Of a stretch of 64,000 nucleotides of DNA, positions 29,716 through 57,511 are shown piece after piece. Source of the stretch: Spirochaetaceae bacterium (GTDB lineage: Bacteria > Spirochaetota > Spirochaetia > DSM-27196 > PWMO01); NCBI GenBank assembly GCA_007693485.1, contig REDM01000178.1:7092-71091 (forward strand). The letters are read 5' to 3'. Numbering within the stretch: position 1 is the first letter of the stretch; each line of letters begins with the position of its first letter. The notes beneath the pieces are model-generated. The model was not told where the DNA came from and searched no databases. It was given only the letters and a program-made list of their open reading frames with translations. The translations under genes and the position numbers were made by a program.

Positions 29716-30249
29716 GTGGACCGACGGCAATACGAAAAGCTCGAACTGATCGCCTTTATGGGCGCGCTCTGCCTGTTTTTCTCCACCATAGAGTACCTGT
29801 TCCCCAAGCCGTTTCCCTTTTTCCGGCTCGGACTGGCAAACCTGCCGGTTCTCGTCACCATCAAGCTCTTTCCGCCGGCATACGTGCTGTTGCTGGTACT
29901 GCTCAAGGTGTTGGGACACGGCCTCATCAACGGCACCCTTGCTTCCTACGTCTTTCTGTTCTCCACGGCCGGCTCCTTTGCAAGCGCTGTGGTGATGCTT
30001 GCGGCGTACTATCTCTGCCGGGACCGCATAACGCTTCTGGGCATCAGCGTCTTTGGCGCCCTCGCGAGTAACGTGGTACAGATCTTTTTGTCGGTAACCT
30101 TCATCTTCGGCAGGTCGGCATGGATCATCGCGCCGCCCTTCATGGCGCTGGGATCGGTCAGCGGTGTGGTGGTAGGCATCTTCGCCCAGCGGTTTTTCAC
30201 CCAGTCCCGCTGGGTGGCGGCTATTCGCACCTACTACGCGCCTGCCTGA
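29716..30249 (+). CDS. Gx transporter family membrane protein
   Basis: IEYLFPKPFPFFRLGLANL motif and several TM helices. Confidence 0.75.
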   Translation: MDRRQYEKLELIAFMGALCLFFSTIEYLFPKPFPFFRLGLANLPVLVTIKLFPPAYVLLLVLLKVLGHGLINGTLASYVFLFSTAGSFASAVVMLAAYYLCRDRITLLGISVFGALASNVVQIFLSVTFIFGRSAWIIAPPFMALGSVSGVVVGIFAQRFFTQSRWVAAIRTYYAPA

Positions 30250-30256
30250 GTCTGAC

Positions 30257-30913
30257 ATGCCAACCAACCGCCGGCGTCGACGACCGCCCAACCGACTCAA
30301 GGAGCACTTCAACGCGATGCATCTCTTTCTTACCGGGGCCCTCGTGCTTCCCGCCTACCTGTTTCAGCCGCTGCTCGTTGTGCGGATCGCACAGGTGCTG
30401 CTCTTTGCCGGGCTCGCCCACCTGGCCGGAAAACGCATCATGTGGATCTACTTTGCCATTACCGTTGCGTCGATCGCCTTCTTCAACCTGCTCACGCCGT
30501 TTGGCCGGGTGTTGGTATCTCTTGGGCCCCTGACGATCACGCGCGGTGCGCTCGAGGGCGGACTGATGAAGGGGTTCACCATCGTTGGGCTCGTGTTTAT
30601 CTCGCTCTTTTCCATTCGTCCTGACCTGCGATTGCCGGGACGTCTGGGGGGGCTGGTCGCGCGGGTGTTTTTCTACTTTGAGCGTATTATCGAGGGCAAA
30701 AAGCGGATTCAGGCCCGCCGCCTGATTGCGAGTATCGACGATGTTCTGGAAGAACTCTACGTGCCGGGCTCCGTTGCGGAAACTGCACCGGTGGAACGGA
30801 TTGACACAACGGCTTTGGGGTATGCTCTGATGGTGGCGGTCCTGGGACTCAACTGGGGGCTGCTCCTTGTTCAATCTCACATCGACTTGGTAGGATGGAT
30901 GACATGGGTTTGA
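30257..30913 (+). CDS. membrane protein, EcfT/CbiQ-like N-terminal part
   Basis: [28 protein letters not shown] resembles an ECF T-component loop. Confidence 0.55.
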
Positions 30914-32109
30914 GTGCCCGAATGGAAGCAGAATTCTCCCGCATCGATGCGGATCTCGCGCGTCTCAAGGACAACGGGCTCTACAAGCGCGAGCGGATTA
31001 TCACCGGACCGCAAGACGCGCATATTTCGGTGGAAGACGGACGCACGGTCATTAACCTCTGCGCCAACAATTATCTGGGGCTTGCCGCCCACCCCGAGGT
31101 GATCGCAGCGGCTCACGAAGCGCTCGATCGCTGGGGTTACGGCCTCTCTTCGGTGCGGTTCATCTGCGGAACCCAGGAGATCCACCGCCGGCTTGAGCAG
31201 GAGCTCGCGGAGTTTCTCGGGACCGAAGATGCGATCCTCTACGCCTCCTGTTTTGATGCCAACGGCGGCCTGTTTGAGACCCTGCTCGGGCCCGAGGACG
31301 CAGTGATCTCGGACTCGCTGAACCACGCGAGTATCATCGACGGCATCCGGCTCTGCAAGGCGCGGCGCCATCTCTACCGCAACGCGGACATGAACGAGCT
31401 GGAGGAGCGGCTGCGGGAAACTCAAGATGCTCGCGTCCGGCTGATCGCGACCGACGGTGTTTTTTCGATGGATGGGACCATCGCGCCCCTGGATAAGATC
31501 TGCGATCTGGCAGAACGGTACGACGCCCTGGTAATGATTGATGATTGCCACGCCGTGGGGTTTCTGGGTGAGGGCGGACGGGGCACCCACGAGTACCGCG
31601 GAGTCATCGACCGGGTGGACATCATCACCGGCACCCTCGGAAAGGCACTCGGGGGCGCGAGTGGTGGGTATACCGCGGCACGGCGCTCGGTGGTTGAGAT
31701 GCTGCGCCAGCGTTCGAGACCCTATCTGTTCTCCAACTCGGTGGCACCGCCGATCGTCGGGGCGTCCCTGGCTGCCCTGGATCTGGTGCGCCGCGATACG
31801 ACGCTTCGCACCCGCCTCTTCGAGAACACCGCCTGGTTTCGCAGCGCCCTCGCTGCCGCAGGTCTGACCGTGCCCGAGGGTACCCATCCCATCGTGCCCA
31901 TCATGCTGGGAGAGGCACAGATCGCCCAGACCATGGCAACGCGGCTTCTGGAGCACGGCATCTATGCGGTTGGATTTTTCTTCCCGGTGGTTCCGCAGGG
32001 AACCGCCCGTATTCGAACCCAGGTCTCCGCGGCGCACTCCCGCGAGGATCTCGAACGCGCGGTTACCGCCTTTGCCGAGGTGGCCCGCGATCTTGGCGTG
32101 TTGGCGTGA
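30910..32109 (+). CDS. kbl: glycine C-acetyltransferase (2-amino-3-ketobutyrate CoA ligase)
   Basis: [42 protein letters not shown] and [11 protein letters not shown]. Start is uncertain by a few codons. Confidence 0.92.
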
Positions 32110-32140: not shown

Positions 32141-33205
32141 GTGGACTACATGATCAGTGGGATACAGCAGATTGGGGTTGGAATTCCCGACAAGGAGCGT
32201 GCCTGGCGCTGGTACCGCGAGCACTTCAACATGGATGTGCCGGTGTTTCAGGAGGCCGCGGAGGCCCCGCTCATGACGCTCTACACCGGGGGTGTGGTCC
32301 AGAGCCGTGACGCGGCCCTCGCCCTCAACATGGCCGGTGGTGGCGGATTTGAGATCTGGCAGTACACAAGCCGGATTCCGGTGCCCCCGTCCTTCCAGCC
32401 CGCGCTCGGCGATTTTGGAATTCTCGCTGCGCGTATCAAGACGCAGGATACCCGCGCGGTGGAGCGAAGGCTGCGTGAGCGGGGGGCCATGGTGCTTGGA
32501 AAGAGCGCTGCCGATCCGGTCGGCAACCTGCACTGTTTTGTGCTCGACCCGCACGGTTTCCTGTTTGATGTGGTGACCGAACGGGAGGGCTGGTTTGGGA
32601 GGACGGGCCCGAGCGGAACCGGCGGAGTCAGCGGCGCCATGATCGGCGTGTCCGACGTGGAAGCCGCCCGGCGGCTCTACAGCGGTCTCTTGGGGTATGA
32701 CCGGGTTGTGTACGACGAATCCGGGGTGTTCGACGACCTTTCAGCCCTTCCCGGTGGTGGGGCGACGCTGCGACGGGTACTGCTGACACACTCTCAGCCG
32801 CGAAGCGGTGCGTTCTCGCAGCTTCTGGGCCCCACGTCGATCGAGCTGATTCAGGGGCTGGACCGCGACGGCCGCAACCTCTTTCGCGACCGGTACTGGG
32901 GTGACCTCGGGTTCATTCACCTCTGTTTCGACGTCATCGGTATGAACGCGCTCAAGGAAGCCGCAGCGGATGCCGGATTCGCCTTCACCGTCGACAGCGG
33001 TGAAAGCTTTGACATGGGAGAGGCTGCCGGACGGTTTGCCTATCTGGAAGATCCGGACGGGAATCTGATTGAGTTTGTGGAAACGCACCGCGTCCCGATC
33101 ATCAAGGCTGCCGGCTGGTACCTCAACCTGCAGAAGCGCAACCCGCGAAAGCCGTTGCCGCGCATGATGATCAGGGCGATGGGATTGGGCCGCATCAAGG
33201 AGTGA
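32141..33205 (+). CDS. tandem VOC/glyoxalase-fold protein
   Basis: ISGIQQIGVG, GGGGFEIWQY, GFIHLCFDV and FAYLEDPDGNLIEFVET. GTG start after GAGGAG. Confidence 0.8.
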   Translation: MDYMISGIQQIGVGIPDKERAWRWYREHFNMDVPVFQEAAEAPLMTLYTGGVVQSRDAALALNMAGGGGFEIWQYTSRIPVPPSFQPALGDFGILAARIKTQDTRAVERRLRERGAMVLGKSAADPVGNLHCFVLDPHGFLFDVVTEREGWFGRTGPSGTGGVSGAMIGVSDVEAARRLYSGLLGYDRVVYDESGVFDDLSALPGGGATLRRVLLTHSQPRSGAFSQLLGPTSIELIQGLDRDGRNLFRDRYWGDLGFIHLCFDVIGMNALKEAAADAGFAFTVDSGESFDMGEAAGRFAYLEDPDGNLIEFVETHRVPIIKAAGWYLNLQKRNPRKPLPRMMIRAMGLGRIKE

Positions 33206-33244
33206 TGCGGCCCGTCGGGCATCCGGGGAGAGCCGGGCAGCCTT

Positions 33245-34534
33245 CTATGCTGCGCTTTTTCCGTAGACCCGGGTGATCTTTGCTTCGTCTTCGCCGTTGA
33301 ACTTCAGATCCATCTTCAGCTCGTCGCGCATCTGCCGAAAGACTTCGATGGTCCGGTTGATGTCGTCGTCGTTGTGGGATGTGGTGGGAATCATCCGGAA
33401 CATACAGAGCCCCAGCGGGATGACCGGGTAGGTGATTGCGGTGGCAAACACGCCGCGGTCGCGCAGGAAGCGGACCAGCTGCTTGCCGACCTCCTCGGTC
33501 TGACGCCCATTGATAGGGGCAAACACCGCACAGATGGGGGACTCGCCCGCGCCAATGAAATACCCAAGCTCTCGCAGTCCATTTTTCAGTTTGTCGGAGT
33601 TTTCCCACATCTTTGCGCGATTTGCATCGGCGTTCTTCACGAGATCCAGGGTCTTCTGCAGCGATTTCACGTAGATCATGGGAAGACTCTTGGCAAACAC
33701 CTGGGTGCGAGCGTTGTAGCTTATCCAGTCGCGCACCGCCTTGGTTGTTGCCGAGAAACCGCCGATTGATGCGAACGCCTTGGCGAAGGTTCCAAAGTAG
33801 ACGTCCACCTCGTCCTGCACGCCAAAGTGATCGGCAACGCCCCGTCCCTGAGAGCCCATGACGCCCCAGCCGTGCGCGTCGTCCACGAAGATGCGGAAGT
33901 TGTATTTCTTCTTCAGTGCGGCGATCTCGTCCAGTCGCGCAAGGTCGCCGGTCATGCCGTAGACGCCCTCGACAAGGACCATCGATCCACCCTTACCCTG
34001 CTTCTCTACGCTCTGCAGCACACTCTCGAGGTCGGCGATGTTGTTGTGCTTGAACACCCGAACCTGCCCCGGCGCCATCATCGCCGCATCGACGATACAG
34101 GCATGGGCGAGCTTGTCCATGATGAGGGTATCCTCGGGACCCGCGAGTGAGGTGATGGTACCAATGACGCCCAGGTATCCGTAGTTAAACAGGATTGCGG
34201 CTTCCTTCTGCGTGAACGCTGCAAGTTCGCGCTCAAGCTGAAGGTGGTACGGGGTATTGCCGGTCATCATCCGGGAACCCATCGGTGCGCTGACCCCGTA
34301 GGTTTGAGCTGCCTCTACGGCGACCTGCTTGATCTCTTCGTTCTCCGCCAGGCCGAGGTAGTTGTTCACCGACCACATGATGCGAGGGCTCCCCTCGAAC
34401 TCCATCATTCGTCCGGGAATCGGGTCGACAATCGGTCGGGTGAAGTAGTGATCGTCTTCTACCCGCTGGCCGCCATAGTACCCGCCATCACCATGACACT
34501 TATCAAAGATGTCCGGTCGCGTGTTCATCTCCAT
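33245..34534 (-). CDS. PLP alpha-oxoamine synthase, putative cysteate C-acyltransferase (CapB/SulA-like)
   Basis: WSVNNYLGL, MGSRMMTG, DKLAHACI, VDDAHG, PLP-Lys in GTFAKAF, and YNARTQVFAKSLPM. Directly downstream of the cysteate synthase. Confidence 0.7.
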   Translation of the reverse strand: MEMNTRPDIFDKCHGDGGYYGGQRVEDDHYFTRPIVDPIPGRMMEFEGSPRIMWSVNNYLGLAENEEIKQVAVEAAQTYGVSAPMGSRMMTGNTPYHLQLERELAAFTQKEAAILFNYGYLGVIGTITSLAGPEDTLIMDKLAHACIVDAAMMAPGQVRVFKHNNIADLESVLQSVEKQGKGGSMVLVEGVYGMTGDLARLDEIAALKKKYNFRIFVDDAHGWGVMGSQGRGVADHFGVQDEVDVYFGTFAKAFASIGGFSATTKAVRDWISYNARTQVFAKSLPMIYVKSLQKTLDLVKNADANRAKMWENSDKLKNGLRELGYFIGAGESPICAVFAPINGRQTEEVGKQLVRFLRDRGVFATAITYPVIPLGLCMFRMIPTTSHNDDDINRTIEVFRQMRDELKMDLKFNGEDEAKITRVYGKSAA

Positions 34535-34549
34535 TGCTTCCTCCATATG

Positions 34550-35848
34550 CTATCGACGGGCACCGTCTGGTGCATCCATTACGAGCCGTGCAACCGTCTC
34601 AGGATGGGCTTCCGCGCGGGAAACCACCACTCTGGGAGCAACTGCATAGGTTTTCTGTTCTCGAGCAAACCGGCGCATACCGCCACCGGTGATGTTGAGC
34701 ATGATTGTTGCATCGGGTTCGACCGAACCGTCGCGTACCGCGGCCACCAGGCTCGCAACCGCAACGGCGGCGGCCTCGGCAATGTCAATTCCTTCGGTAT
34801 CTTCAAACAGCTGTGCGGCGGCACGGGCATCGTGGTTTTCGACCGCAAAGATCTCACCGTCGGTGGCGCAGAGTGCGTCGTAGAGACCACCGGTTACCGA
34901 GTAGGGTGGGTTGCGGTTTGAGAGCACCGCAGCGTAGATATCGTTGATCTGTGCTTTTTCGGTCGCCTCATCGCAATGCACGAGGGCCCGCGAGCGCAGC
35001 CTCCACGAGTCGTACATGAGGAGGAAGGGCGCGTTCTGGGACAGCATCAGTTTCATGGTGGTCTTCCCAAAGCGCCCGTCGGCGAGGAATCGCCGATTGG
35101 CCTCCCACGCGGCGATCGCTCCGGTCCCGCTTCCGATCGCCTGAAAGAAATAATCGGGGATGCGTCCGATGGTTGTGACGGCCGAGAGCACTGTGGTCCC
35201 CATTCCGTCGCGTCGGGCTACGTTGCGCGCACCGCCCTCGGCAACATAGCCGTCGAGCGATGCGATCATCGCAGCAAGGTCGATCGCGTCTGAGTAGTCG
35301 GCGCCGTCACCTGCGGCCACTACCGTGACGCAGTTGTGCACCGGAAATGGGCTCCAGACGGCGTCGAGGTTTTTTTCGGGAACAACAACCACCGCCGGGA
35401 TTCGATTCTGCGAACAGACGTGGATGAAGGCGCGCGCGGTGTTTCCCGCCGAGGCAACCACAAGCGATGCGGGAAAGTCGTCGGGAATGCGACCACACAC
35501 CGAAAACGCCTCGCACTCCTTGAAGGTGCCGGTGAGCATCAGCGCGTCTCGTTCGGGCCAGTATCCGCTGAAGGTGACGTAGAGATTGTTCAGCCCCAGT
35601 TCGCGGGCGAGGCCGTTGCTTTTGTAGGTAATGGGAGCCGACGATCCCGAAAGGCTCCGCGACAGGGGGAGCCAGTCGCGGAAGCGATAGATCCCGTGAT
35701 CGGCATCAAGCAGCTGTAACCGGCGCGCCTGGTACTCGGTACGAAGGAGGGCGGATTGAGGAGCCCCCGCGTTTCCCAGCAGAATGGTATTTCGACTGTC
35801 GGGAAGACGGTGGCCGGAACCCAAGCAGGTGAGTTCGTATTCTGTCAT
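34550..35848 (-). CDS. cysteate synthase (threonine-synthase-like PLP enzyme)
   Basis: TFSGYWPER, TGTFKECEA, ASAGNTARAF, EGGARNVARRDGMGT, QAIGSGTGAIAAWEA, LSNRNPPY and LNITGGG. Confidence 0.85.
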   Translation of the reverse strand: MTEYELTCLGSGHRLPDSRNTILLGNAGAPQSALLRTEYQARRLQLLDADHGIYRFRDWLPLSRSLSGSSAPITYKSNGLARELGLNNLYVTFSGYWPERDALMLTGTFKECEAFSVCGRIPDDFPASLVVASAGNTARAFIHVCSQNRIPAVVVVPEKNLDAVWSPFPVHNCVTVVAAGDGADYSDAIDLAAMIASLDGYVAEGGARNVARRDGMGTTVLSAVTTIGRIPDYFFQAIGSGTGAIAAWEANRRFLADGRFGKTTMKLMLSQNAPFLLMYDSWRLRSRALVHCDEATEKAQINDIYAAVLSNRNPPYSVTGGLYDALCATDGEIFAVENHDARAAAQLFEDTEGIDIAEAAAVAVASLVAAVRDGSVEPDATIMLNITGGGMRRFAREQKTYAVAPRVVVSRAEAHPETVARLVMDAPDGARR

Positions 35849-36001
35849 GAACAACCTGTTCTTTTCACGCTGTGCCGATGATCAACAACCTTTCCGCCTA
35901 TTGTCAACTGATTTCTTGTCGAATGGCTGTTCCTCATCGTTTTCTTACCGTTTGGCCGGGAACGCGCGTTCGTCGCTGCGCCGATTACAGAGAAAAGCAG
36001 T

Positions 36002-36029: not shown

Positions 36030-36058
36030 TTGAGAATTGGATTCATTTTGTGTATGAT
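36030..36058 (+). promoter_or_regulatory. tetR promoter
   Basis: TTGAGA-N17-TATGAT with an in-frame GTG 6 nt downstream. Confidence 0.55.
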
Positions 36059-36064
36059 AGAGTG

Positions 36065-36730
36065 GTGAGCGAACAGAGCCGGATTGCATCCGGTCGAACC
36101 GATCGTCGTGCCCTGCTTCTCTCGGTCGGGCGAACCTTGTTCGAGCGCAATGGGTATCGTGGCGTTTCGGTCGAACAGGTGACCCGCCGGGCCGGCCTGA
36201 GCGCAGGTACCTTCTACAACTATTTCTCCGGCAAAGAGGCGTTCTACTCGAGTGTACTCGACGAAATCGAGGCTGAGGGGATCCGCAAGGCCAATCAGAT
36301 TGTCCAGCGGCTGCATTCTCCCATGAACAAACTGCGCGCCCTCTATCGGTTTATTACCCTCGGGTTGCGTCAGAACCCCATTCTCAAAGGCATCTTCCTC
36401 GGGAAGGCCGAATACCGCTTCCCCGGCGCAACCGAGCGGTCGGCTCGAAGAGACGGGCTGAGGCCGCACCTTGAGCGCATGGTTGATGAGATCATCCGTG
36501 AGGGAACGCGCAAGGGAGTGTTTCGTGCGAGCCTCTACCACAATACCACGGCCATGGTGACCGCCGTCTTTGACGCGGTGATTCTGCACGTAGAAGACGA
36601 TAACGCCGAAGAACTGTTTGCCGATCTTCTCACCTTTCTCCAGCGCGGCCTCCGCCGTGCGCTCCACCTTCGACGGCGCGATGAGCGTCGCGACCGCCGG
36701 CTGCTCGGTGAAGCATCGGACTGGATTTAA
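36065..36730 (+). CDS. TetR/AcrR-family transcriptional regulator
   Basis: LFERNGYRGVSVEQVTRRAGLSAGTFYNYFSGKE HTH. Confidence 0.9.
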   Translation: MSEQSRIASGRTDRRALLLSVGRTLFERNGYRGVSVEQVTRRAGLSAGTFYNYFSGKEAFYSSVLDEIEAEGIRKANQIVQRLHSPMNKLRALYRFITLGLRQNPILKGIFLGKAEYRFPGATERSARRDGLRPHLERMVDEIIREGTRKGVFRASLYHNTTAMVTAVFDAVILHVEDDNAEELFADLLTFLQRGLRRALHLRRRDERRDRRLLGEASDWI

Positions 36731-46807: not shown

Positions 46808-49735
46808 ATGAAGCGACTTCTCCTGCTGACCGTCGTGCTTCTGTGCGCCGGCAGCCTTTTCGCGCAGAGTTCCGATCGGGACCTCTTTCTTCAGGCCGAG
46901 GCGCGGTTTCGCGCCGGCGAATTTGAAGTCGCGCTCGAGCGGTATGACGCGCTGATTCGCCAGTTTCCCGTTTCGCAGTTTGTCCCCGACGCACAGTTTC
47001 GTCGTGCCGTGACCCTTCATCGGCTTGGACGGCACCAGGAATCACTCGAGCTGTTACAGCGGGTGGAAACCCGGTTCCGCTCGACGCGATTTCTGCAGCA
47101 GGTGCCGTTCTGGAAGGGGGTGGCGCACTATCGACTCAGAAACTACACCACTGCGGCGGCCGATCTGCGCCTCTTTCTCAGCGCAAGCGCAGACGCGGGA
47201 CAGCGAGTGCAGGCGTTGCTCTACCTGGCGCTCAGTGAGGTAGAGTTGGGCTCGCGCCCGGCGGCGCTGGCAGCGCTGGAACAGATGTTTGAGATTACCA
47301 ACCCGTCCAGCGAGCTCTTTGCCGCGAGCGTCTACCTTGCGTTGCTGCTTCAGGAAGGACGGCCGCAGGACGGGGTTGAGTTTTTCGAGCAACTGAACCT
47401 TCCCGCGGTGGGTGGAACCCGAAGGGACACGGTGGTGCTCTATGCGGCCGAAGCGTATCGCCGGTCCGGAGCGGTGTCCGAGGCCCAAACCCTGCTGCGC
47501 GGCCTGCGCGGGGCGGATGCATCCGTTGCCGCGGTTGCCTTTCAACAGCTCTTTCAGATCGCGCAGGAGAGCGGAGATGAAACGGCACTGCTGACGGTGA
47601 CCAGCGAGGCCGAGCAGGCACTCGCGGGGCGAACCGACGTCCTGGCTCAATTCTGGCTGCAGGTGGGCATTGAGACCTTTCACCAAGGTCGGTTCGATCT
47701 CTCAGAGCTCTACCTTCAACGGGTGTGGGATCTGCGACGCTCGCAGCCGGTCAGCGGCACGGTTCCGCTTCACCTCGCGGAAATTCTCGCCGCCCGTGGC
47801 GAGCGAACGCGAGCGGTTGCAGTGCTGAACGACCATCTGGAGCGCAGCAGAGACCAGATTGCTGCGGTTCTTTTCCGTCTCGGGCGCCTTCACGCCGCAG
47901 GTGGAGACTGGCGCCGGGCGGCCGAGGTGCTCACGGTTGTGTTCACCGAGCACCGTGATACGGATGTGTTTGCGCCGGCTGCGTATCAACTAGCCTTCGC
48001 GCGAAACCGTCTGCAACAGACCGACGATGCGCTTACCGTCATAGACGACGTGTTCTCCGCCGGGCTCGCGGGACAGTTTGCAGGAGACTTCCTGCGATTG
48101 CGCGCGCAGATCTATCGCAGTCGCGGTGCCCTTGAGCAGGCTCTCCAGGCGCTGCGCGAGTATCTCGGACGGAATCCCGGAGACCTCGACGCGCTGATTG
48201 AGCAGGCAACGCTGCTCTTCCAGCTCGAACGGTACGGGCAGGTCATCAGCGAACACCGGGACATTTCTGCAGCGCATCCCAGCCTGCAGAGCGACAGACC
48301 CGATCTTTCGGTTCAGCTCGATTACCTCGTTGGGCTCGCGTTGATCGCCGGTCGCGATTACCGCGCAGCGATCGCGGCGCTACGCCGCCTGCCCGACGAC
48401 CCCGAGTCGCTACGAGCGCTCGCACCCGAACGTGACTTTGAGATCATCCACCCCTACGCCCTCTACTATCTTGGGTGGGCGTACTTTCGGCTCTCCGAGT
48501 ATGCCTCGGCCATCGCTTCCTTCGACCGGCTTCTGCGTTTTGATGAGCGTCATCGCTTTGCACCGCAGGCCGCCCACCTCGCCGGGTGGAGCGCCTACAA
48601 CCTCGAGCGCTACGATGCCGCCGAGGGGTACCTGCGGCGTCTTCGCGCAATGCGCGTTGGCGGGACCATCGAAACCGAGGCGGCGTTCCTCCTTGGTCAG
48701 ACCTTTTCCGCCCGCAATCGTTACGAGGAAGCCCTGGTCGAGTTTCGAAACGTCTTTCTGGATAGTCCCAATTCCCCGCTCGCCGACGACGCGCTGTTTG
48801 AGTACGCCGGTGTGCTGGTTCGCATGGGGCGCGTGGATGATGGCGTCCAGCAGTATCGAAACGTGTTCAGCCGCTTTCCCACCGGTGAACTCGCCGAGGA
48901 GGCGTTGTTTCGCCGTGGCGAGATCCTCTTCGAACGCGGCCGGTATGACGATGCGCGCAGCGCATTCTTCGAACATCGAAGCAACTTTGCGCAAGGCGAA
49001 CTCGTGCACGCCTCGCTCTACTGGGCAGGCATTGCCTCCGAGCGCCTCGGCGAGCGGGCCGGAGCGCTCCTGCTGTGGGAACAGCTGATCAGGGATCATC
49101 GCGGCAGCCCATTCCGCCCGGACGCGATGCTGCGTTCGGTGACCCTCTATGAAGATCTCGGGCAGTACCGTAACGCACTCAACATCGTCACGGAGTTCAT
49201 CGCCGCGTATCCCGCCCAGGCCGAGGCGCTGCAGACCCGCCGGAAGGCGGATGAGTTGATTCTGCTGATCGGCGGTCTCTCCGAGCAGGAAGCACGGTTG
49301 TGGGTTCGCATCGACGAGAACCGTCGCACCCAAACCAGCGCCGGTCGGGCTGCGATTCTCGAACTCGGGCGGCTTGCGATCATGGAAGGCGCGGGGAGCC
49401 CTGCGAACGAGAACCTCGTGGTGCAGCTTCTCGACGATACGGCGCGCCTGCGGAGCGAAGACCCGGCGGCTGCCGCCGAGGCGACCTTTCTCCTCGCTGA
49501 GTACCAGATGCGCAGCTCCAACCCGGCCCCCGCCGCACAGCTGTTTTTGAGTGTTCCTGAGATCAATCCGGAAAACCGGGATCTCGCCGCGCGCTCGTTG
49601 TTCCGCGCAGCGGAAGCGCTGCAGTTTGCGGGGCGTGACGCCGATATGCGCGAAATTATCCGTCGCCTTGAACAGACCTTTCCGGCGTCAGAGTGGACAA
49701 CTCGGGCGCGTCGCCTGCTGGGAGGCACCCCGTGA
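46808..49735 (+). CDS. large periplasmic TPR protein
   Basis: Signal peptide and many TPRs (FPVSQFVPDAQFR, SPLADDALFEYA, YALYYLGWAYF). Confidence 0.88.
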   Translation: MKRLLLLTVVLLCAGSLFAQSSDRDLFLQAEARFRAGEFEVALERYDALIRQFPVSQFVPDAQFRRAVTLHRLGRHQESLELLQRVETRFRSTRFLQQVPFWKGVAHYRLRNYTTAAADLRLFLSASADAGQRVQALLYLALSEVELGSRPAALAALEQMFEITNPSSELFAASVYLALLLQEGRPQDGVEFFEQLNLPAVGGTRRDTVVLYAAEAYRRSGAVSEAQTLLRGLRGADASVAAVAFQQLFQIAQESGDETALLTVTSEAEQALAGRTDVLAQFWLQVGIETFHQGRFDLSELYLQRVWDLRRSQPVSGTVPLHLAEILAARGERTRAVAVLNDHLERSRDQIAAVLFRLGRLHAAGGDWRRAAEVLTVVFTEHRDTDVFAPAAYQLAFARNRLQQTDDALTVIDDVFSAGLAGQFAGDFLRLRAQIYRSRGALEQALQALREYLGRNPGDLDALIEQATLLFQLERYGQVISEHRDISAAHPSLQSDRPDLSVQLDYLVGLALIAGRDYRAAIAALRRLPDDPESLRALAPERDFEIIHPYALYYLGWAYFRLSEYASAIASFDRLLRFDERHRFAPQAAHLAGWSAYNLERYDAAEGYLRRLRAMRVGGTIETEAAFLLGQTFSARNRYEEALVEFRNVFLDSPNSPLADDALFEYAGVLVRMGRVDDGVQQYRNVFSRFPTGELAEEALFRRGEILFERGRYDDARSAFFEHRSNFAQGELVHASLYWAGIASERLGERAGALLLWEQLIRDHRGSPFRPDAMLRSVTLYEDLGQYRNALNIVTEFIAAYPAQAEALQTRRKADELILLIGGLSEQEARLWVRIDENRRTQTSAGRAAILELGRLAIMEGAGSPANENLVVQLLDDTARLRSEDPAAAAEATFLLAEYQMRSSNPAPAAQLFLSVPEINPENRDLAARSLFRAAEALQFAGRDADMREIIRRLEQTFPASEWTTRARRLLGGTP

Positions 49736-51414
49736 TGCATCGTGTATGGCGTATCTCTCTGGTGGCACTGGTGCTCGTGTCGGCGACGGTTTCGGCGCAG
49801 CAGGGGGCGGCTCCGCAACAGAGCGATCGCACCCGCGGCAGCGGCCCGCAGGACACCGACATCACCTTGCCGGAGACCTTCCTCGAAGTCGAAGAGGTTC
49901 TGATCGAACGGGTCGAGGCGGTTCTTCCTCAACCGGCCGATCTGCTTCCCGCAGTCCAGACGGTGCCGCTTCCGACCGAAGAGGAGCTTCGGATCTCCGA
50001 CGGTCTGTTCGATATTCCGGGTATCGACGATCCGACCTTTCGCTCCGACGGTGGGGGAGAGTCATCCTTCTTTTCAGACGGCGTGCTCGGAACCGGCAGT
50101 AACTACCATATCCTCGGCTCCTTGACGCTGTTCAAGCTGGGAACGGATCCTCGGTTTCGGTTCCAGTTTGCCCATGAGAGCATCGACGGGTTTCAGTTTT
50201 CGGGGCCGGGCAGGGGGTTCTTTGAACGGGAAGACACCATCGAGGGGTGGATCGCATCGAGCGTGACCTCGCGCTTGAGAGCAGAAGGCGAAGCTCGCTT
50301 CTTCCAGCGCGAGATTGGTCTTCAGAATCAACCCGATCTCTTCTATTCAGCCGGCCACCGCTCGTTGTCCGGCAGCGCCCTCATGGAGTACTCGCTGTTC
50401 AACCGGGTGACGCTGGGCCTGCAGACCGAAGCAGCTTTTGTTGAGCGCATCTTCACCGTGAAGGACCCGGCGCTCGATCCTCCGCGGCAAGATGAGATCT
50501 CGGTACAACCGGCAATCTTTCTCGCGTTTCGCAGTAACCGCGTGCTGGTACGCGCAGACGGCGAGTACGAGTACCGCTCCTTTGGTGGGGGTGATCTCAC
50601 CACCGACCAGGCTGGTGCGGCTTCGCTGACCGCCGAAGTGTCCGTACGAGACGCGCTTTTTCTGGAAGCAACCGGCGGGACTCGCATCTCAGCCGCCGAC
50701 GGGTTGCTGTTCCCCTTCCGGGTCGCAGCCACCGCAAACCTCGACGACACACTCACCCTGTCTGCCGAGGGCGGGTACCGGGTGGTGCCGCCGCGGTTCT
50801 TCGATCTGTGGCAGCGGTTCCCGCTGCTCAGTTTTGGCCCGGAGGATCGTCGAAGGCCCGCGTCGGAGCGCGCCTGGTACGGTGCGGTCCACGGTGCCCT
50901 GGCTACGGCCGACCGGCGAGTCTCGTTGGAAGCGGGGGCCGAGTTCGCGGTTCGTTCCTACGCGCTCAATCTCGCCCCCTTCGACGCCGTGGGGGATGCC
51001 ACCTTTGGATTACTGCAGGAAGAACATACGACGCTCACGCCGGAAGTGGTGCTCACCTGGCGACCCGGTGTGGTTCAGTTTTCCGCGGGATGGGAGGCCA
51101 ACCTCCTGGATCGCTCGGTGTTTGCTCCTGAGCAGAGTCTGAGTGCGGGGCTGGAGGTTATCCACGCTTCGGAACGGTTTGGCGCAAACGTCGCCGCGCG
51201 TGCAGACCTGTTTGACGATGCAACGCTTCCGCGCCTGGGAGCAGGAGGCTTTTTCAACGTTGCCCGCGGGGTGCAGTTTCAGTTGGAACTGCGTGACCTG
51301 CTGGCGCCTGCCCTTCCTGACGGGCGACCGCAGATTGGCAGCGATGTCTCGTCCAATTTCCCCTTCATTGAACCCGGCTTCCGGGTCATCCTCAAAGCGA
51401 ACGTATCCCTCTAA
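49735..51414 (+). CDS. putative outer-membrane beta-barrel protein
   Basis: Signal peptide, alternating amphipathic strands, terminal strand GFRVILKANVSL; next to exbBD-tonB. Confidence 0.6.
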   Translation: MHRVWRISLVALVLVSATVSAQQGAAPQQSDRTRGSGPQDTDITLPETFLEVEEVLIERVEAVLPQPADLLPAVQTVPLPTEEELRISDGLFDIPGIDDPTFRSDGGGESSFFSDGVLGTGSNYHILGSLTLFKLGTDPRFRFQFAHESIDGFQFSGPGRGFFEREDTIEGWIASSVTSRLRAEGEARFFQREIGLQNQPDLFYSAGHRSLSGSALMEYSLFNRVTLGLQTEAAFVERIFTVKDPALDPPRQDEISVQPAIFLAFRSNRVLVRADGEYEYRSFGGGDLTTDQAGAASLTAEVSVRDALFLEATGGTRISAADGLLFPFRVAATANLDDTLTLSAEGGYRVVPPRFFDLWQRFPLLSFGPEDRRRPASERAWYGAVHGALATADRRVSLEAGAEFAVRSYALNLAPFDAVGDATFGLLQEEHTTLTPEVVLTWRPGVVQFSAGWEANLLDRSVFAPEQSLSAGLEVIHASERFGANVAARADLFDDATLPRLGAGGFFNVARGVQFQLELRDLLAPALPDGRPQIGSDVSSNFPFIEPGFRVILKANVSL

Positions 51415-54228: not shown

Positions 54229-54298
54229 GATTCCATATGCATTCCCGGGTTTTTTGCGGTATAATACCCGTGGTAATTTACCCTGGGGAGGGGAACAG

Positions 54299-57200
54299 AT
54301 GGTATTCTCAGCCGGAAACGTACTCGTACTGTTTATAGTACTGGTCATCCTCGCGATTTACCGCCAACTCGACCGCAATAACCGCTCACTGGAAAAGGTC
54401 AAACGCTTCGCGGAGCGCGTGCAGGGTGATCTCGATGCCCTTGTCGAGCAGAAGGCCACAGCAATCAAGGACATGGGAATCGAGCTCGAAGTTCACCAGC
54501 GTGCGGCGCGCGAGGTCCTCAAACGGATTCAAACGCTGGAAGATGGCCTGTCCAAACGCGCGGAGCAGATCGAGAACATCGGAAACCGCATTGGTGATTA
54601 CGACACCGCCCTCGATGAGCTCCTCAAGATGACTGAGCGTGCGCAGGAAAACATCACCCGTATCAAGGACGAATCCGAATACATCGACACCGTGGGAAAG
54701 CGGCTGAAGCAGTCGCAGACGCGCATGGACGAGATTGGTACGCGGATCCCGGAGCTGGTCACCGAGTTTGCCCGGCACAACGCCGGAGAGCTCGAGAAGC
54801 TCGAAGAGTCCGTCTTCCGCAGGGCCGACGAACGGATCAACGCGCTCACCGAATCGCTTGATTCGGTTGCCTACCGCTTGAACGAGTTCGAGGAATCGGT
54901 GGCGACCGCCCGCGCGGCCAGCGACGAGGTGACCGCCGGCGCGATCGCCGATCTCGAGCGCACGGCCGAGAAAACGGTGGAGCGCCTGGCATCGAAGGGC
55001 GAAGAGGCTCACAAGGCAATCGAGCGCTACGCGGGACGCTTCTCCAAAGTGGAGCAGGACTACGAGAGTCGGCTCGAGAAGATCGCAGCGCGGGGCGAGA
55101 AGATGGAAACCGCCGCGCTCGAAAAGCTCAAGGACCATATCAAGAATCGCGTGCAGGGAGTCTCCGAAGAGTTGTCGCGGACCATCGCCGAACAGCATAA
55201 GGAAGCCGAAGCGCGGATTAAGGAAGTTCGCCTGTTGATCAACAACGGCGGAACCGCAATGAAGAGCTGGGAAGCCGAGCTGGCGACGGTTGGCAAGCAC
55301 GTTGCCGACGAGATGCAGGCGCTGCGCGACCGTCTCGCCGGGTCCACGCAGGAAGTGGAGCAGCAGGTGCTCGCCGCGGTGGAGGCTCGGATCCACGAGT
55401 TCGAGGATGCGATCTCCTACCGTGTACAGAAGATCGAAGGCGTTACCAGCGATATCGATGCCCTGGAGGCGGCGCTTCGGCAATCGATGCTGGCCGCCCA
55501 GGAGCAGGTTTCGGCCGAGTTCGACCAGTTTGGCGCCAATCTCATGGAACAGCGGGAAGCGGATCGCAGCGCAGCGGAAGCCTCGTTTGCCGCGCTGCGC
55601 GATGAGATGGCCGGCTTGGAGCAGGGGCTCAATGAGCTCAAACAGCGTGCGTACGAGAACGTCTCAGAGAAACTTCAAGGCTTTGAGGACGAATTCTTTA
55701 CCGATCTGCGCGATCGCAGCGTTGCCATCGAGGGTCGGCTTGACGAGTTCCAGACCGATCTTCGGACGCGCCTGGCCGAGATGGAGGAGCGCTACGCTGC
55801 CGAACGTGAGTCGGTGGAGGTTGGATACCGTGATCAGTTGCGTACGCGGCTGAACGAGCACCAGCAAACGGTACAGACCCGTCTGGAGACCACCAGCCGC
55901 AAGGCGGAATCCCTTGAGAAAGAGCTCGGCGTCCGGTTCGTCGAGTGGGAGCAGAGCGTCGATGGATTCCGCGAACACGCGGCCGCCGAGCTGCAGGCTG
56001 CCGGAGAAGCGGCTCGCGCCCGGTTTGAAGAAGAGCTCGAACGGCGCGCGGCAGCGATCGCGTCACAGGTTGAGTCATTCGAACGTGGCGTTGCCGGACG
56101 CGTCCAGGAGCTGGACCAGAGCGTGTCGACGCGAATCCAGGAAGTATCCACCCGGATCGATGAGACGCAGTCCGACGTTGCCCTCGCGCAGGCAAAGCTT
56201 GAGCAGCAGATTGGCGCAACCACCGACGAACTCGAACAGCAGATTGGCGACTTCCGCCGGCAGGTTACCGCGGAGATGGCCGAGTTTTCCGGTGAGGTTC
56301 GCGACAAGCGGGATCGGCTTGCGATCCAGGTTGGAGAGCTCGAGGATCGGCTGTCGACCGTGCGCAGCGACATGGACAGTCGGGTGGACGAGGTGCTGGT
56401 ACGCTTCAAGTCGCAGTACGACGATCTGGAGCGCCATCTCGGCGCACGGGCATCTGAGGTTCAGGATCAATCCGAGGAGATCTCGCGTGAGATCACCTCC
56501 CTTGTGCAGCAGACGCGCGAACAGTTCTCCGGCATGCAGCAGAAGATGCTCGGCCGGCTCCAGGACGAAACCCGCGTCATCGCGGTCAACCTCGAAGAAA
56601 TCGATAAGCGGCAGAAACAGTTTGTGGAACAGACCCGAATTTTCGAGCGGGCCGACACGCTCAAGGTTTCGCTCGAACAGAACGTCGATCAGCTGAAAAC
56701 CGAAATCGGCCGGGTGGAACAGATGCGGTCCGAAGTTCGCGAGCTCGACGGTCAGGTGGGACGGCTGCGCAAAGCAGCCGGCGAGGCGGCCGAGAAGATG
56801 GCGCGCTTTGTCGCCGAAAAGCGGAGGATTGACGCGCTGGAAGACGACTTCCGCCGCCTGATCGCCATGTCGCAGTCGATTGAGACGCGGCTCGAACAGG
56901 TGACCGCGAGCAATGATGAGGTGCAGGCAATCCAGGCACAGCTTCGGAACCTGGAGCAGATACAGAAGGAGACCGAAGAGAACTTCGGCCGGCTGGAAAA
57001 GAAACGCACCATCCTGGAGGTTACCACCGACGGAATCGACAAGAGCTTTCTGCAGCTGCAGCAGATTGAGAAGCGGATTGAAACGGTCGACGAGCGGTTG
57101 GCAACGGTTCCCAAGCGGCTCGACGATGTGACCCACACCATGCACGATCTGCTGAGTGGCAAGAAGGAGACCGAAGCGGCGGTCAAGCAGCTGGAAACCC

Positions 57201-57511
57201 TCGATACGGTGCTGAAAGACATAGAAGGTCGCATGGAGCAGCTCTCGACGGCCCGGGAATGGCTTGCCCGCACCGAAACCCGTCTCGAAGAGGTTGGACG
57301 CGAAGCGCAGGAGCAGGTTAAGTTGCTGGGGACCCTTTTGCGCGAGAACGGAAAGGGCGAAAAACCCGAGAAGGGTGCTCCGACATTGAGCGCTCGCGAT
57401 ACGGTGGTAAAACTTGCGCGTCAGGGCTGGAAGGTCGAAGAAATCTCTCGCGCCACCAAGGTCAGCCGGGGAGAGGTGGAGCTGATTCTGGAGCTGACGG
57501 GGAACCACTGA
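54299..57511 (+). CDS. SpiroCoCo-type membrane-anchored giant coiled-coil protein
   Basis: TM helix, YRQLDRNNRSLEKVK, about 1000 aa of heptads, and a C-terminal HTH-like LARQGWKVEEIS...SRGEVELILE. Confidence 0.8.
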   Translation: MVFSAGNVLVLFIVLVILAIYRQLDRNNRSLEKVKRFAERVQGDLDALVEQKATAIKDMGIELEVHQRAAREVLKRIQTLEDGLSKRAEQIENIGNRIGDYDTALDELLKMTERAQENITRIKDESEYIDTVGKRLKQSQTRMDEIGTRIPELVTEFARHNAGELEKLEESVFRRADERINALTESLDSVAYRLNEFEESVATARAASDEVTAGAIADLERTAEKTVERLASKGEEAHKAIERYAGRFSKVEQDYESRLEKIAARGEKMETAALEKLKDHIKNRVQGVSEELSRTIAEQHKEAEARIKEVRLLINNGGTAMKSWEAELATVGKHVADEMQALRDRLAGSTQEVEQQVLAAVEARIHEFEDAISYRVQKIEGVTSDIDALEAALRQSMLAAQEQVSAEFDQFGANLMEQREADRSAAEASFAALRDEMAGLEQGLNELKQRAYENVSEKLQGFEDEFFTDLRDRSVAIEGRLDEFQTDLRTRLAEMEERYAAERESVEVGYRDQLRTRLNEHQQTVQTRLETTSRKAESLEKELGVRFVEWEQSVDGFREHAAAELQAAGEAARARFEEELERRAAAIASQVESFERGVAGRVQELDQSVSTRIQEVSTRIDETQSDVALAQAKLEQQIGATTDELEQQIGDFRRQVTAEMAEFSGEVRDKRDRLAIQVGELEDRLSTVRSDMDSRVDEVLVRFKSQYDDLERHLGARASEVQDQSEEISREITSLVQQTREQFSGMQQKMLGRLQDETRVIAVNLEEIDKRQKQFVEQTRIFERADTLKVSLEQNVDQLKTEIGRVEQMRSEVRELDGQVGRLRKAAGEAAEKMARFVAEKRRIDALEDDFRRLIAMSQSIETRLEQVTASNDEVQAIQAQLRNLEQIQKETEENFGRLEKKRTILEVTTDGIDKSFLQLQQIEKRIETVDERLATVPKRLDDVTHTMHDLLSGKKETEAAVKQLETLDTVLKDIEGRMEQLSTAREWLARTETRLEEVGREAQEQVKLLGTLLRENGKGEKPEKGAPTLSARDTVVKLARQGWKVEEISRATKVSRGEVELILELTGNH

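Follow-up and report, generated by a model that had tools for sequence, protein, structure and literature searches.

A candidate operon for capnine-type sulfonolipid synthesis in a spirochaete, encoding a cysteate synthase and a member of a sister clade of the CapB/SulA acyltransferases

Sulfonolipids are treated as a hallmark of the Bacteroidota, and research on them has dealt with gliding motility, the structure of the outer membrane, immune signalling in hosts and the way they induce multicellularity in choanoflagellates. Could a spirochaete be a source of such lipids as well? The question is raised by a 64,000-nucleotide (nt) stretch of contig REDM01000178.1 from a soda-lake Spirochaetaceae bacterium (the whole stretch is called the window below, and gene coordinates follow its numbering), in which two adjacent genes at 33245-35848 encode a pyridoxal-phosphate (PLP) enzyme of the cysteate synthase type and an alpha-oxoamine synthase. 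The genome assembly is 3.76 Mb in size, is divided into 304 contigs and is 92% complete. The original prediction, made from the DNA letters, took the pair for a capnine biosynthesis operon. Based on the comparisons described below, we consider it probable that the pair forms cysteate and converts it into a 3-ketocapnine-type base, the operon thereby starting the synthesis of a capnine-type sulfonolipid.

In the known pathway a cysteate synthase, a cysteate acyltransferase and a short-chain dehydrogenase (SDR) act in this order, as described in PMC13692747, PMC9304779 and PMC11211663. The CapA and CapB enzymes of Capnocytophaga ochracea (structures 28eh and 28fa of CapB/COCFAT) belong to the same two families as the products of the spirochaete pair. 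Unlike CapA and CapB, the pair of the window is found in a spirochaete, with its two genes adjacent and linked to a TetR-family gene, and the pairs of its relatives are joined to cysD, cysNC and cysH. Two surveys of human-associated genomes, made with loose thresholds, list homologues of CYS, CFAT and SDR for 21 and 13 phyla (PMC11525784, PMC11211663). In our literature search, which did not cover the supplementary tables of these surveys, no report of sulfonolipids or of the gene pair in spirochaetes was found.

The product of the upstream gene scored 489.4 bits against the NCBIfam cysteate synthase model TIGR03844 (equivalog cut-off 324.9), and 54.1 bits at best against all threonine synthase models of the same collection. 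Its closest match in the PDB was the cysteate synthase 9k3c (467 bits, E 5.8e-139), aligned over nearly the full length (query residues 4-411 with chain residues 7-412), while the threonine synthases in the PDB gave at most 49 bits. By these scores the upstream PLP enzyme is classified as a cysteate synthase and not as a threonine synthase, the alternative named with the original prediction. The archaeal cysteate synthase of coenzyme M synthesis, as in Methanosarcina, belongs to the same equivalog family, and Methanosarcina acetivorans was the only one of 14 control genomes to exceed the TIGR03844 cut-off. Unlike the archaeal enzyme, that of the window is bacterial, linked to an acyltransferase gene and not linked to coenzyme M genes.

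The second gene encodes an alpha-oxoamine synthase (Pfam Aminotran_1_2, 149 bits), called the acyltransferase below after its predicted activity. Its translation contains all the motifs originally quoted for it, among them GTFAK, in which the catalytic K256 is aligned with Lys250 of CapB. The scores of this protein stayed below every NCBIfam equivalog cut-off for BioF, Kbl (glycine C-acetyltransferase), serine palmitoyltransferase (SPT), ALAS and CqsA: 296.2 bits against a cut-off of 426.45 for the BioF model TIGR00858; 287.1 against 460 and 234.6 against 493 for the Kbl models NF005394 and TIGR01822; and 290.6 against 500, 285.1 against 640 and 205.8 against 670 for the SPT models NF047599, NF047600 and NF047603, respectively. 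The two best PDB matches were CapB (28eh, 356.7 bits, residues 12-413) and SulA of Alistipes finegoldii, a cysteate acyl-acyl carrier protein (acyl-ACP) transferase (7u7h, 355.9 bits). The best SPT structure, 3a2b from Sphingobacterium multivorum, shares the fold-type I alpha-oxoamine synthase scaffold and the PLP chemistry and scored 235.7 bits, and the structures of Kbl and BioF gave 190 bits or less.

The CapB residues that surround the adduct of PLP and cysteate, as given in a structural paper of 2026 (PMC13692747), were mapped by hand onto the alignment from the PDB search, and the corresponding columns were tabulated in a 65-row alignment. Both the catalytic and the trans-subunit lysines of CapB are shared with the window acyltransferase, and 15 of the 18 cysteate-pocket residues are identical, the three changes (Tyr for Phe113, Ser for Ala82 and Val for Met277) all being conservative. 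Lys281 of SulA is singled out in PMC9304779 as the one active-site residue by which SulA clearly differs from Spt, where the position is Ala. This diagnostic lysine (SulA 281, CapB 280) corresponds to K286 of the window acyltransferase; it is invariant in a 17-sequence alignment, and is found in all 47 rows of the window clade (the window's own included) in the 65-row alignment and in the representatives P0140-P0145. Elsewhere the column holds Ala (three SPT-like rows), Asn (Kbl) or His (P0150 and P0155), and even within the SulA/CapB-type group the lysine is not universal, being replaced by Glu in P0152 and Arg in P0157. Two further residues, Glu193 and Ala255, track the lysine in the window clade and in P0140, P0141, P0143 and P0145; the Glu193 column is Asp in the fusion proteins P0142 and P0144 and in the SPT-like rows, and the Ala255 column is Ser in the SPT-like rows. 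At the four positions taken together, the window enzyme has Lys, Glu193, Ala255 and Phe251, in contrast to Ala, Asp, Ser, and Met or Gly in the SPT-like rows. By every sequence criterion applied, the window enzyme appears to be cysteate acyltransferase-like.

As stand-ins for the verified CapB/SulA type, we used 50%-identity representatives labelled by PDB score, including P0145 (541 bits against SulA, 519 against CapB) and P0152 (475 and 419 bits, respectively); the SPT-like kind is represented by P0166 (585 bits against NF047600). When 1.84 billion such representatives were searched exhaustively, the family proved to be compact, with the nearest member, P0140, 53% identical to the window acyltransferase, a few at 42-45%, the SulA-type P0145 at 44%, and SPT/BioF-like proteins at 38% or less. 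Trees were made with FastTree on 115 rows and with IQ-TREE (LG+G4, 1000 ultrafast bootstraps and SH-aLRT) on 65 rows subsampled from the 115, the latter with Kbl as the outgroup; four related loci were left out, L008 as a near-identical copy of the window, L091 as a repeat of L085, and L034 and L095 as truncated. In the IQ-TREE tree the window clade is sister to the SulA/CapB-type representatives, with support of 94/87 for their union and of 100/98 after addition of two fusion forms, and the SPT-like rows, the genome's own SPT-like paralogue and Kbl fall outside this group. The window enzyme itself is located in a subclade consisting entirely of Spirochaetota (35 rows with support 98 by FastTree; 12 rows with 97/98 by IQ-TREE). 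Deeper in the clade, both trees interleave metagenome-assembled genomes (MAGs) titled Marinimicrobia, Lentisphaeria, Aminicenantes, Clostridia and Eubacteriales. The tree, the model cut-offs and the diagnostic column together bear out the original statement that the enzyme differs from the neighbouring Kbl, and set it apart from the two SPT-like paralogues of the genome as well. Its supposed resemblance to the cysteate acyltransferase clade of the Bacteroidota was right in that CapB and SulA are its closest solved relatives and share the diagnostic lysine, and is to be refined as to its place, which by sequence comparison is in a distinct sister clade and not inside the Bacteroidota CapB/SulA clade.

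Three of the representatives, P0141, P0142 and P0144, are fusions of 1049-1127 aa, in which a cysteate-acyltransferase-like domain at the C terminus follows about 640-700 N-terminal residues. The longest, P0141 (1127 aa), is a Rhodothermaceae-type fusion, one member of its cluster being named from a Rhodothermaceae MAG.

The genes near the acyltransferase were compared in 80 related loci from species-representative genomes, of which 73 had at least 1.4 kb of sequence upstream of the acyltransferase. Neighbours were counted by tblastn; counts from clustering of open reading frames (ORFs) were noisy, the acyltransferase ORF being lost to the overlap rule in four loci, and were not used. The cysteate synthase gene was located directly upstream of the acyltransferase gene on the same strand in 56 of the 73 loci. 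Also upstream on the same strand were cysD and a cysN-cysC fusion (cysNC), each in 24 loci, and a cysH-like gene for reduction of 3'-phosphoadenosine 5'-phosphosulfate (PAPS) or adenosine 5'-phosphosulfate followed the acyltransferase directly on the same strand in 16; at least one of these three was present in 26 of the 80 loci. A TetR-family gene was aligned divergently upstream of the operon in 29 of the 80. The extended operon, in the order cysD, cysN/cysC fusion, cysteate synthase, acyltransferase and cysH-like gene, was observed in 24-26 of the 80 loci (for example L012-L019, L028-L038, L046, L054, L065 and L066) and not in the genome of the window, and several Oceanispirochaeta MAGs carry the full cys-flanked form. 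The cys genes of this extended operon would represent a dedicated branch from sulfate to sulfite, supplying sulfite for lipid synthesis. Since a single operon spans sulfate activation, sulfite formation, cysteate synthase and acyltransferase, the gene context gives strong support for sulfite-derived cysteate as the substrate.

The contig is spirochaetal, as originally supposed. Three FlaA sheath proteins are encoded in the genome, a marker found in none of the 14 control genomes, and for the RNase Y gene 1.2 kb from the operon the named matches among the top 120 are all from Spirochaetota (Spirochaeta lutea, 81%). Of 20 other genomes from the same family, 19 (among them all 5 from the genus) were found to carry the acyltransferase gene, as were 8 of 20 others from the order; for cysteate synthase the figures were 19 of 20 and 10 of 20. 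Among these 41 relatives, with the window's genome counted, the acyltransferase was present in 28, the synthase in 30 (29 above the cut-off) and both in 27. In an even sample of 401 Spirochaetota genomes (synthase by the TIGR03844 cut-off, acyltransferase at E<=1e-100), each gene was found in 24 genomes, both in 23 and neither in 376; the exceptions were a genome whose synthase is divided between two contigs and another, 89% complete, that has only the synthase. No carriers were found among the other sampled genomes of the same order or class in this set. The spirochaete carriers are of two types, one with the genes adjacent as in the window and the other with the genes unlinked. The unlinked type, which comprises family f19 (16 of 17 genomes) together with f32 and f50, forms its own clade (support 100/100, IQ-TREE). 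The gene order RNase Y, TetR, synthase, acyltransferase and VOC-family protein is common to many spirochaete loci. In our reading, the operon is long resident and vertically inherited in this spirochaete family, with no sign of a recent import from the Bacteroidota. It is one of a clade of such operons that extends over Spirochaetota, Fidelibacterota (Marinimicrobia), Lentisphaerota and Clostridia. As the acyltransferase clade interleaves several phyla, transfers between phyla are likely to have occurred deeper in its history.

The VOC-family gene (glyoxalase/dioxygenase fold; Table 1), convergent with the operon and 31 nt downstream of the Kbl gene, was found in 53 of the 80 related loci, in 49 of these within 1.2 kb of the acyltransferase. 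In two loci of Oscillospiraceae MAGs (L072 and L078), synthase, acyltransferase, SDR and VOC genes are aligned in this order on one strand, and in a Treponema sp. (L080) and a Clostridia MAG (L081) acyltransferase, SDR and VOC genes are packed likewise, with gaps of about 3-40 nt; all four loci have the VOC gene in a same-strand four-gene operon. In the 401-genome sample the VOC gene (E<=1e-40) was detected in 18 genomes, each of which is one of the 25 with synthase or acyltransferase. It is present in 29 of the 41 relatives, 26 of which hold synthase, acyltransferase and VOC together. An obligatory partnership was considered and rejected: none of the 167 genomes from the phylum of G401 (an acyltransferase carrier described below) holds the VOC gene and 5 hold the acyltransferase, and three spirochaetes (G196, G241 and G276) carry the pair without it. 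The named homologues with 55-61% identity to the VOC protein belong to MAGs labelled Bacteroidota, Bacteroidia, Flavobacteriales and Rhodothermales, groups in which sulfonolipids are known. When the VOC gene was taken as the centre of 80 Bacteroidota-like metagenome loci (L115-L194), an SDR gene directly upstream proved to be its commonest neighbour (23 of 78), and genes for a lipase of the patatin-like kind (16) and an acyltransferase of the PlsC type (10) came next; a SulA-type acyltransferase adjoins it in 3 of the 80, and an acyltransferase of the window's type, with the synthase, in 1.

Profile matches of the VOC protein in the PDB were to single-module VOC proteins only, at E 7e-7 or weaker. 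Gln6/Gln7, Glu68, His257 and Glu308/Glu311 are invariant or nearly so in the alignment, and stand at what we take, by comparison with glyoxalase I and methylmalonyl-CoA epimerase, to be the places of metal ligands. Because the conserved residues sit at such positions, the alignment suggests a protein of the isomerase or epimerase type rather than a dioxygenase. One might speculate that a 2-amino-3-keto intermediate is its substrate. No report linking a VOC or glyoxalase-family protein with sulfonolipids was found in our literature search; the link between this protein and the gene pair is new, and makes the protein a candidate for an extra component of the pathway.

Taken together, the following order of reactions is proposed. 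From its family membership, the cysteate synthase would exchange the phosphate of O-phospho-L-serine for sulfite to give L-cysteate. The acyltransferase, judged by similarity, signature residues and gene linkage, would then form the PLP-cysteate external aldimine, which should condense with a long-chain acyl thioester (acyl-ACP in the case of SulA) with loss of CO2 to give a 3-ketocapnine-type sulfonated long-chain base. Reduction of the 3-keto group by an SDR, for which no dedicated gene was found in this genome, would give capnine, and an N-acyltransferase would convert capnine into the membrane sulfonolipid. The VOC-family protein, for which co-occurrence with the pair is what is observed, would probably act on the aminoketone or on capnine. 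The lipid product itself, a sulfonolipid of the capnine type, is inferred from the genes. Compared with the known pathway, the new features, as far as sequences can tell, are the separate clade of the enzyme, the provision of sulfite from within the operon in relatives, the host range and the candidate additional component. A wider proposal, which we put forward tentatively and with somewhat less than even confidence, is that capnine-type synthesis is not essentially a trait of the Bacteroidota; that a distinct operon clade is fixed in whole families of the Spirochaetota and occurs also in Fidelibacterota, Lentisphaerota and Clostridia, in many cases with its own sulfate-to-sulfite genes; and that the VOC protein of about 350 aa is an unrecognised member of the pathway.

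Several observations weigh against capnine-type synthesis by this operon. The acyltransferase is not nested among the stand-ins for the verified enzymes but belongs to a sister clade of theirs, at 44% identity to the SulA-type representative. No members of the PAPS-reductase family (CysD/CysH, PF01507), ATP sulfurylase (PF01747) or sulfite reductase domain (PF01077), and neither Xsc nor a type-1 SerC (TIGR01364), were found in the genome at its 92% completeness. An adjacent cysteate synthase gene is lacking in 17 of the 73 related loci; of five such genomes searched, two have the synthase elsewhere and none was found in three. For two cultured Oceanispirochaeta strains, fatty acids and cardiolipins are reported and no capnine lipids appear in the main text of PMC11129491, which mentions such lipids for the Bacteroidota. 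No SDR is encoded in the operon or the window, and between the SDRs of the genome and those linked to the operon at other loci the identity is only 25-35%; a genome search for a CapC-like SDR, suggested with the original prediction, brought up nothing closer than these generic enzymes.

As to the last point, the published 3-ketocapnine reductases (KCR) are described in PMC11211663 as scattered SDRs of low identity, not recognisable by sequence alone, and the missing operon SDR is therefore not evidence against the pathway. Seven related loci (five with the title Clostridia or Eubacteriales, one with Treponema sp. and one with 'Cytophagia') have an SDR gene immediately after the acyltransferase and on its strand, as would fit a third step by enzymes of the KCR/CapC kind, which are related to 3-ketodihydrosphingosine reductase. 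In the genome of the window, the best KCR candidates are the SDRs beside the SPT-like paralogues, which share 29-31% identity with the two nearest of the operon-linked SDRs and 27-29% with the others.

These SDRs are encoded on two other contigs, C29 and C157, in near-duplicate loci (L002:1465-3542 and L003:506-2637) where an SDR gene is followed by the gene for an SPT-like alpha-oxoamine synthase, and which are convergent with a gene for a PIG3-type quinone oxidoreductase. The two SPT-like paralogues scored 487 and 485 bits against NF047600, below its cut-off of 640, and show Ala in the column of the SulA lysine. These loci point to possible sphingolipid-type synthesis by the spirochaete as well; the two copies may be a true duplication or stem from two strains that share a bin.

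With respect to the loci without a synthase gene, in four genomes (G401, G571, G572 and G574; loci L085, L013, L023 and L074) the acyltransferase is present and no cysteate synthase was detected at E<=1e-50. Either another source of cysteate, an incomplete assembly or a different substrate in part of the clade would account for them. Because such loci and genomes exist, some members of the clade may obtain cysteate elsewhere or use another substrate.

How far do other explanations account for the same observations? The pair might make a cysteate-derived aminoketone other than a membrane sulfonolipid, either a shorter-chain signal or specialised metabolite, comparable to the autoinducers formed by CqsA-type synthases, or a base that the VOC protein turns into some other end product. 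We regard this as unlikely but worth keeping in view: the clade is distinct from CapB/SulA and may differ from it in acyl chain preference, the conserved VOC protein, without a role in the published pathway, travels with the pair, a TetR regulator is present at many loci, and the absence of capnine lipids from the main text on the cultured Oceanispirochaeta (PMC11129491) would agree with such a product. It is opposed by the pocket residues, nearly those of CapB, which uses long-chain acyl donors, by the sulfate-activation genes in the operon, suggestive of bulk flux rather than of a trace signal, and by the far lower scores for the CAI-1 synthase family (104 bits in the PDB; 196 bits against a cut-off of 428). 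It is improbable, in our estimate, that the second enzyme acts on serine, glycine or alanine (SPT, Kbl or BioF type) and stands beside a cysteate synthase by coincidence. BioF, Kbl and SPT models do match it at E of about 1e-85 to 1e-88, and public sources call its homologues 'glycine C-acetyltransferase', but no score reaches the curated cut-off, and a true Kbl as well as two SPT-like paralogues are encoded in the genome besides it. The diagnostic column holds Lys and not Ala or Asn, and Glu193 and Ala255 are replaced in the SPT-like rows by Asp and Ser, respectively. In 56 of 73 loci the two genes adjoin each other, and of the 24 genomes that carry each gene in the 401-genome sample, 23 carry both.

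Very improbable, and slightly more so, is a use of cysteate outside lipids, through sulfopyruvate to sulfoacetaldehyde, taurine or a coenzyme-M-like product, with the alpha-oxoamine synthase acting in some other pathway. Cysteate synthase was first known from the coenzyme M synthesis of methanogens, and a ComD/ComE-like decarboxylase with an alpha subunit above the cut-off is encoded on contig C239; its beta subunit is, however, below the cut-off, its cluster looks catabolic and is unlinked to the operon, and the cysteate synthase tracks the acyltransferase almost one-to-one across genomes. The least probable explanation, one we scarcely credit, is a recent transfer of the operon into this genome from the Bacteroidota. 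The patchy distribution (24 of 401 sampled Spirochaetota) and the interleaving of phyla in the clade would be consistent with it, but the acyltransferase is present in 19 of 20 other members of the family and 8 of 20 others in the order, with shared synteny and ordinary G+C content, in an all-Spirochaetota subclade from which the SulA-type sequences are separated as another clade at 44% identity. Of the original suggestion of horizontal acquisition, only the deeper transfer between phyla remains likely. Synthesis of a capnine-type sulfonolipid is retained as the probable function of the pair.

The ComD/ComE-like enzyme on contig C239 (L097:2790-10587) is a two-subunit thiamine-diphosphate decarboxylase, with 153.6 bits for the alpha subunit against TIGR03845 (cut-off 148) and 147 bits for the beta subunit against TIGR03846 (cut-off 221.5). 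The cluster also encodes an aldehyde dehydrogenase, two amidohydrolases, a MarR-like regulator and a TRAP transporter, and may be a catabolic cluster for sulfonate or phosphonate. Being on a separate contig and in a catabolic-looking cluster, the decarboxylase was set aside as not belonging to the operon pathway. The original remark that no coenzyme M genes are nearby is correct for the neighbourhood of the operon, to which this pair on another contig has to be added.

The features of the region are listed in Table 1.

Table 1. Genes and predicted signals in and around the cysteate synthase-acyltransferase operon (window coordinates).
Feature	Coordinates	Strand	Remarks
Kbl (glycine C-acetyltransferase)	30895..32109	+	TIGR01822 657.4 bits (cut-off 493); NF005394 644 bits
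VOC-family (glyoxalase/dioxygenase-fold) protein	32141..33205	+	354 aa; Pfam Glyoxalase 45 bits (two stretches), Glyoxalase_4 39 bits; start taken from the identical stored protein P0293
Terminator-like hairpin	33237..33253	+	5-pair stem and T-run, in the 39-nt gap between the convergent VOC and acyltransferase genes
CFAT/CapB/SulA-like alpha-oxoamine synthase (putative)	33245..34534	-	operon gene 2; ATG 34534 after GGAGG, likely start
Cysteate synthase (CapA/Cys type, by sequence)	34550..35848	-	operon gene 1; ATG 35848; 432-aa PLP enzyme; Pfam PALP
Promoter-like site TTGACA-18 nt-GATCAT	35878..35907	-	about 30 nt 5' of the cysteate synthase start; 10/12 consensus matches
TetR-family regulator	36050..36730	+	Pfam TetR_N E 1.7e-13; divergent from the operon

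The two operon genes lie where they were originally placed, with 15 nt between the stop codon of the first and the likely start of the second, or 3 nt if the first ATG is considered. The longest ORF of the acyltransferase (33245-34546) starts 12 nt before the likely ATG, and a 99%-identical member of its cluster starts at the fifth residue of that ORF; for cysteate synthase an in-frame TTG at 35854 is the alternative start (ORF 34550-35854). The promoter-like site is a pattern match only, from a consensus scan that gave 3 sites in the region against 1.1 expected from shuffles, and the hairpin is not above chance, the terminator scan having given 4 sites against 3.4 expected. The divergent TetR-family gene probably encodes the local regulator of the operon. 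Seven DNA sequencing runs contain 33245-35848 wholly or in part, two of them at 0.89-0.97 of the sampled words; no RNA run is listed for it in the index of sequencing runs.

The original prediction also placed a genuine Kbl about 1 kb away, and the gene was indeed found about 1.1 kb from the acyltransferase gene with one gene in between; Kbl is a neighbour and a contrasting paralogue outside the proposed pathway. Two genes 5' of it, one for a 218-aa protein without a Pfam match (30257-30913, + strand; homologues in 21 of the 80 related loci) and the other for a protein like component I of heptaprenyl diphosphate synthase (29716-30249, + strand; homologues in 15), are kept with this neighbourhood in spirochaete loci. 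The other genes of the window have housekeeping functions (GlnE, PtsI, Der, DnaK and a sigma-54 activator), and the G+C content is even, 0.59-0.62 around the operon within a range of 0.56-0.65 across the window. Two large ORFs on the + strand, 54254-57511 (1085 aa) and 49693-51414 (573 aa), have no confident Pfam family, the former giving only sub-threshold matches to apolipoprotein-like repeats.

Several spirochaete lineages have outer membranes without classical lipopolysaccharide. If the proposed function is correct, some spirochaete outer membranes may carry a sulfonated analogue of sphingolipids, and there would be more possible sources of sulfonolipids in sediments and guts, affecting their use as biomarkers. 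The pathway that is scattered in the Bacteroidota would then exist in an operon-encoded version, in which sulfate activation, cysteate synthesis, condensation, SDR and VOC genes are found together, and such an operon would make the later steps and the role of the VOC-family protein directly testable by co-expression.

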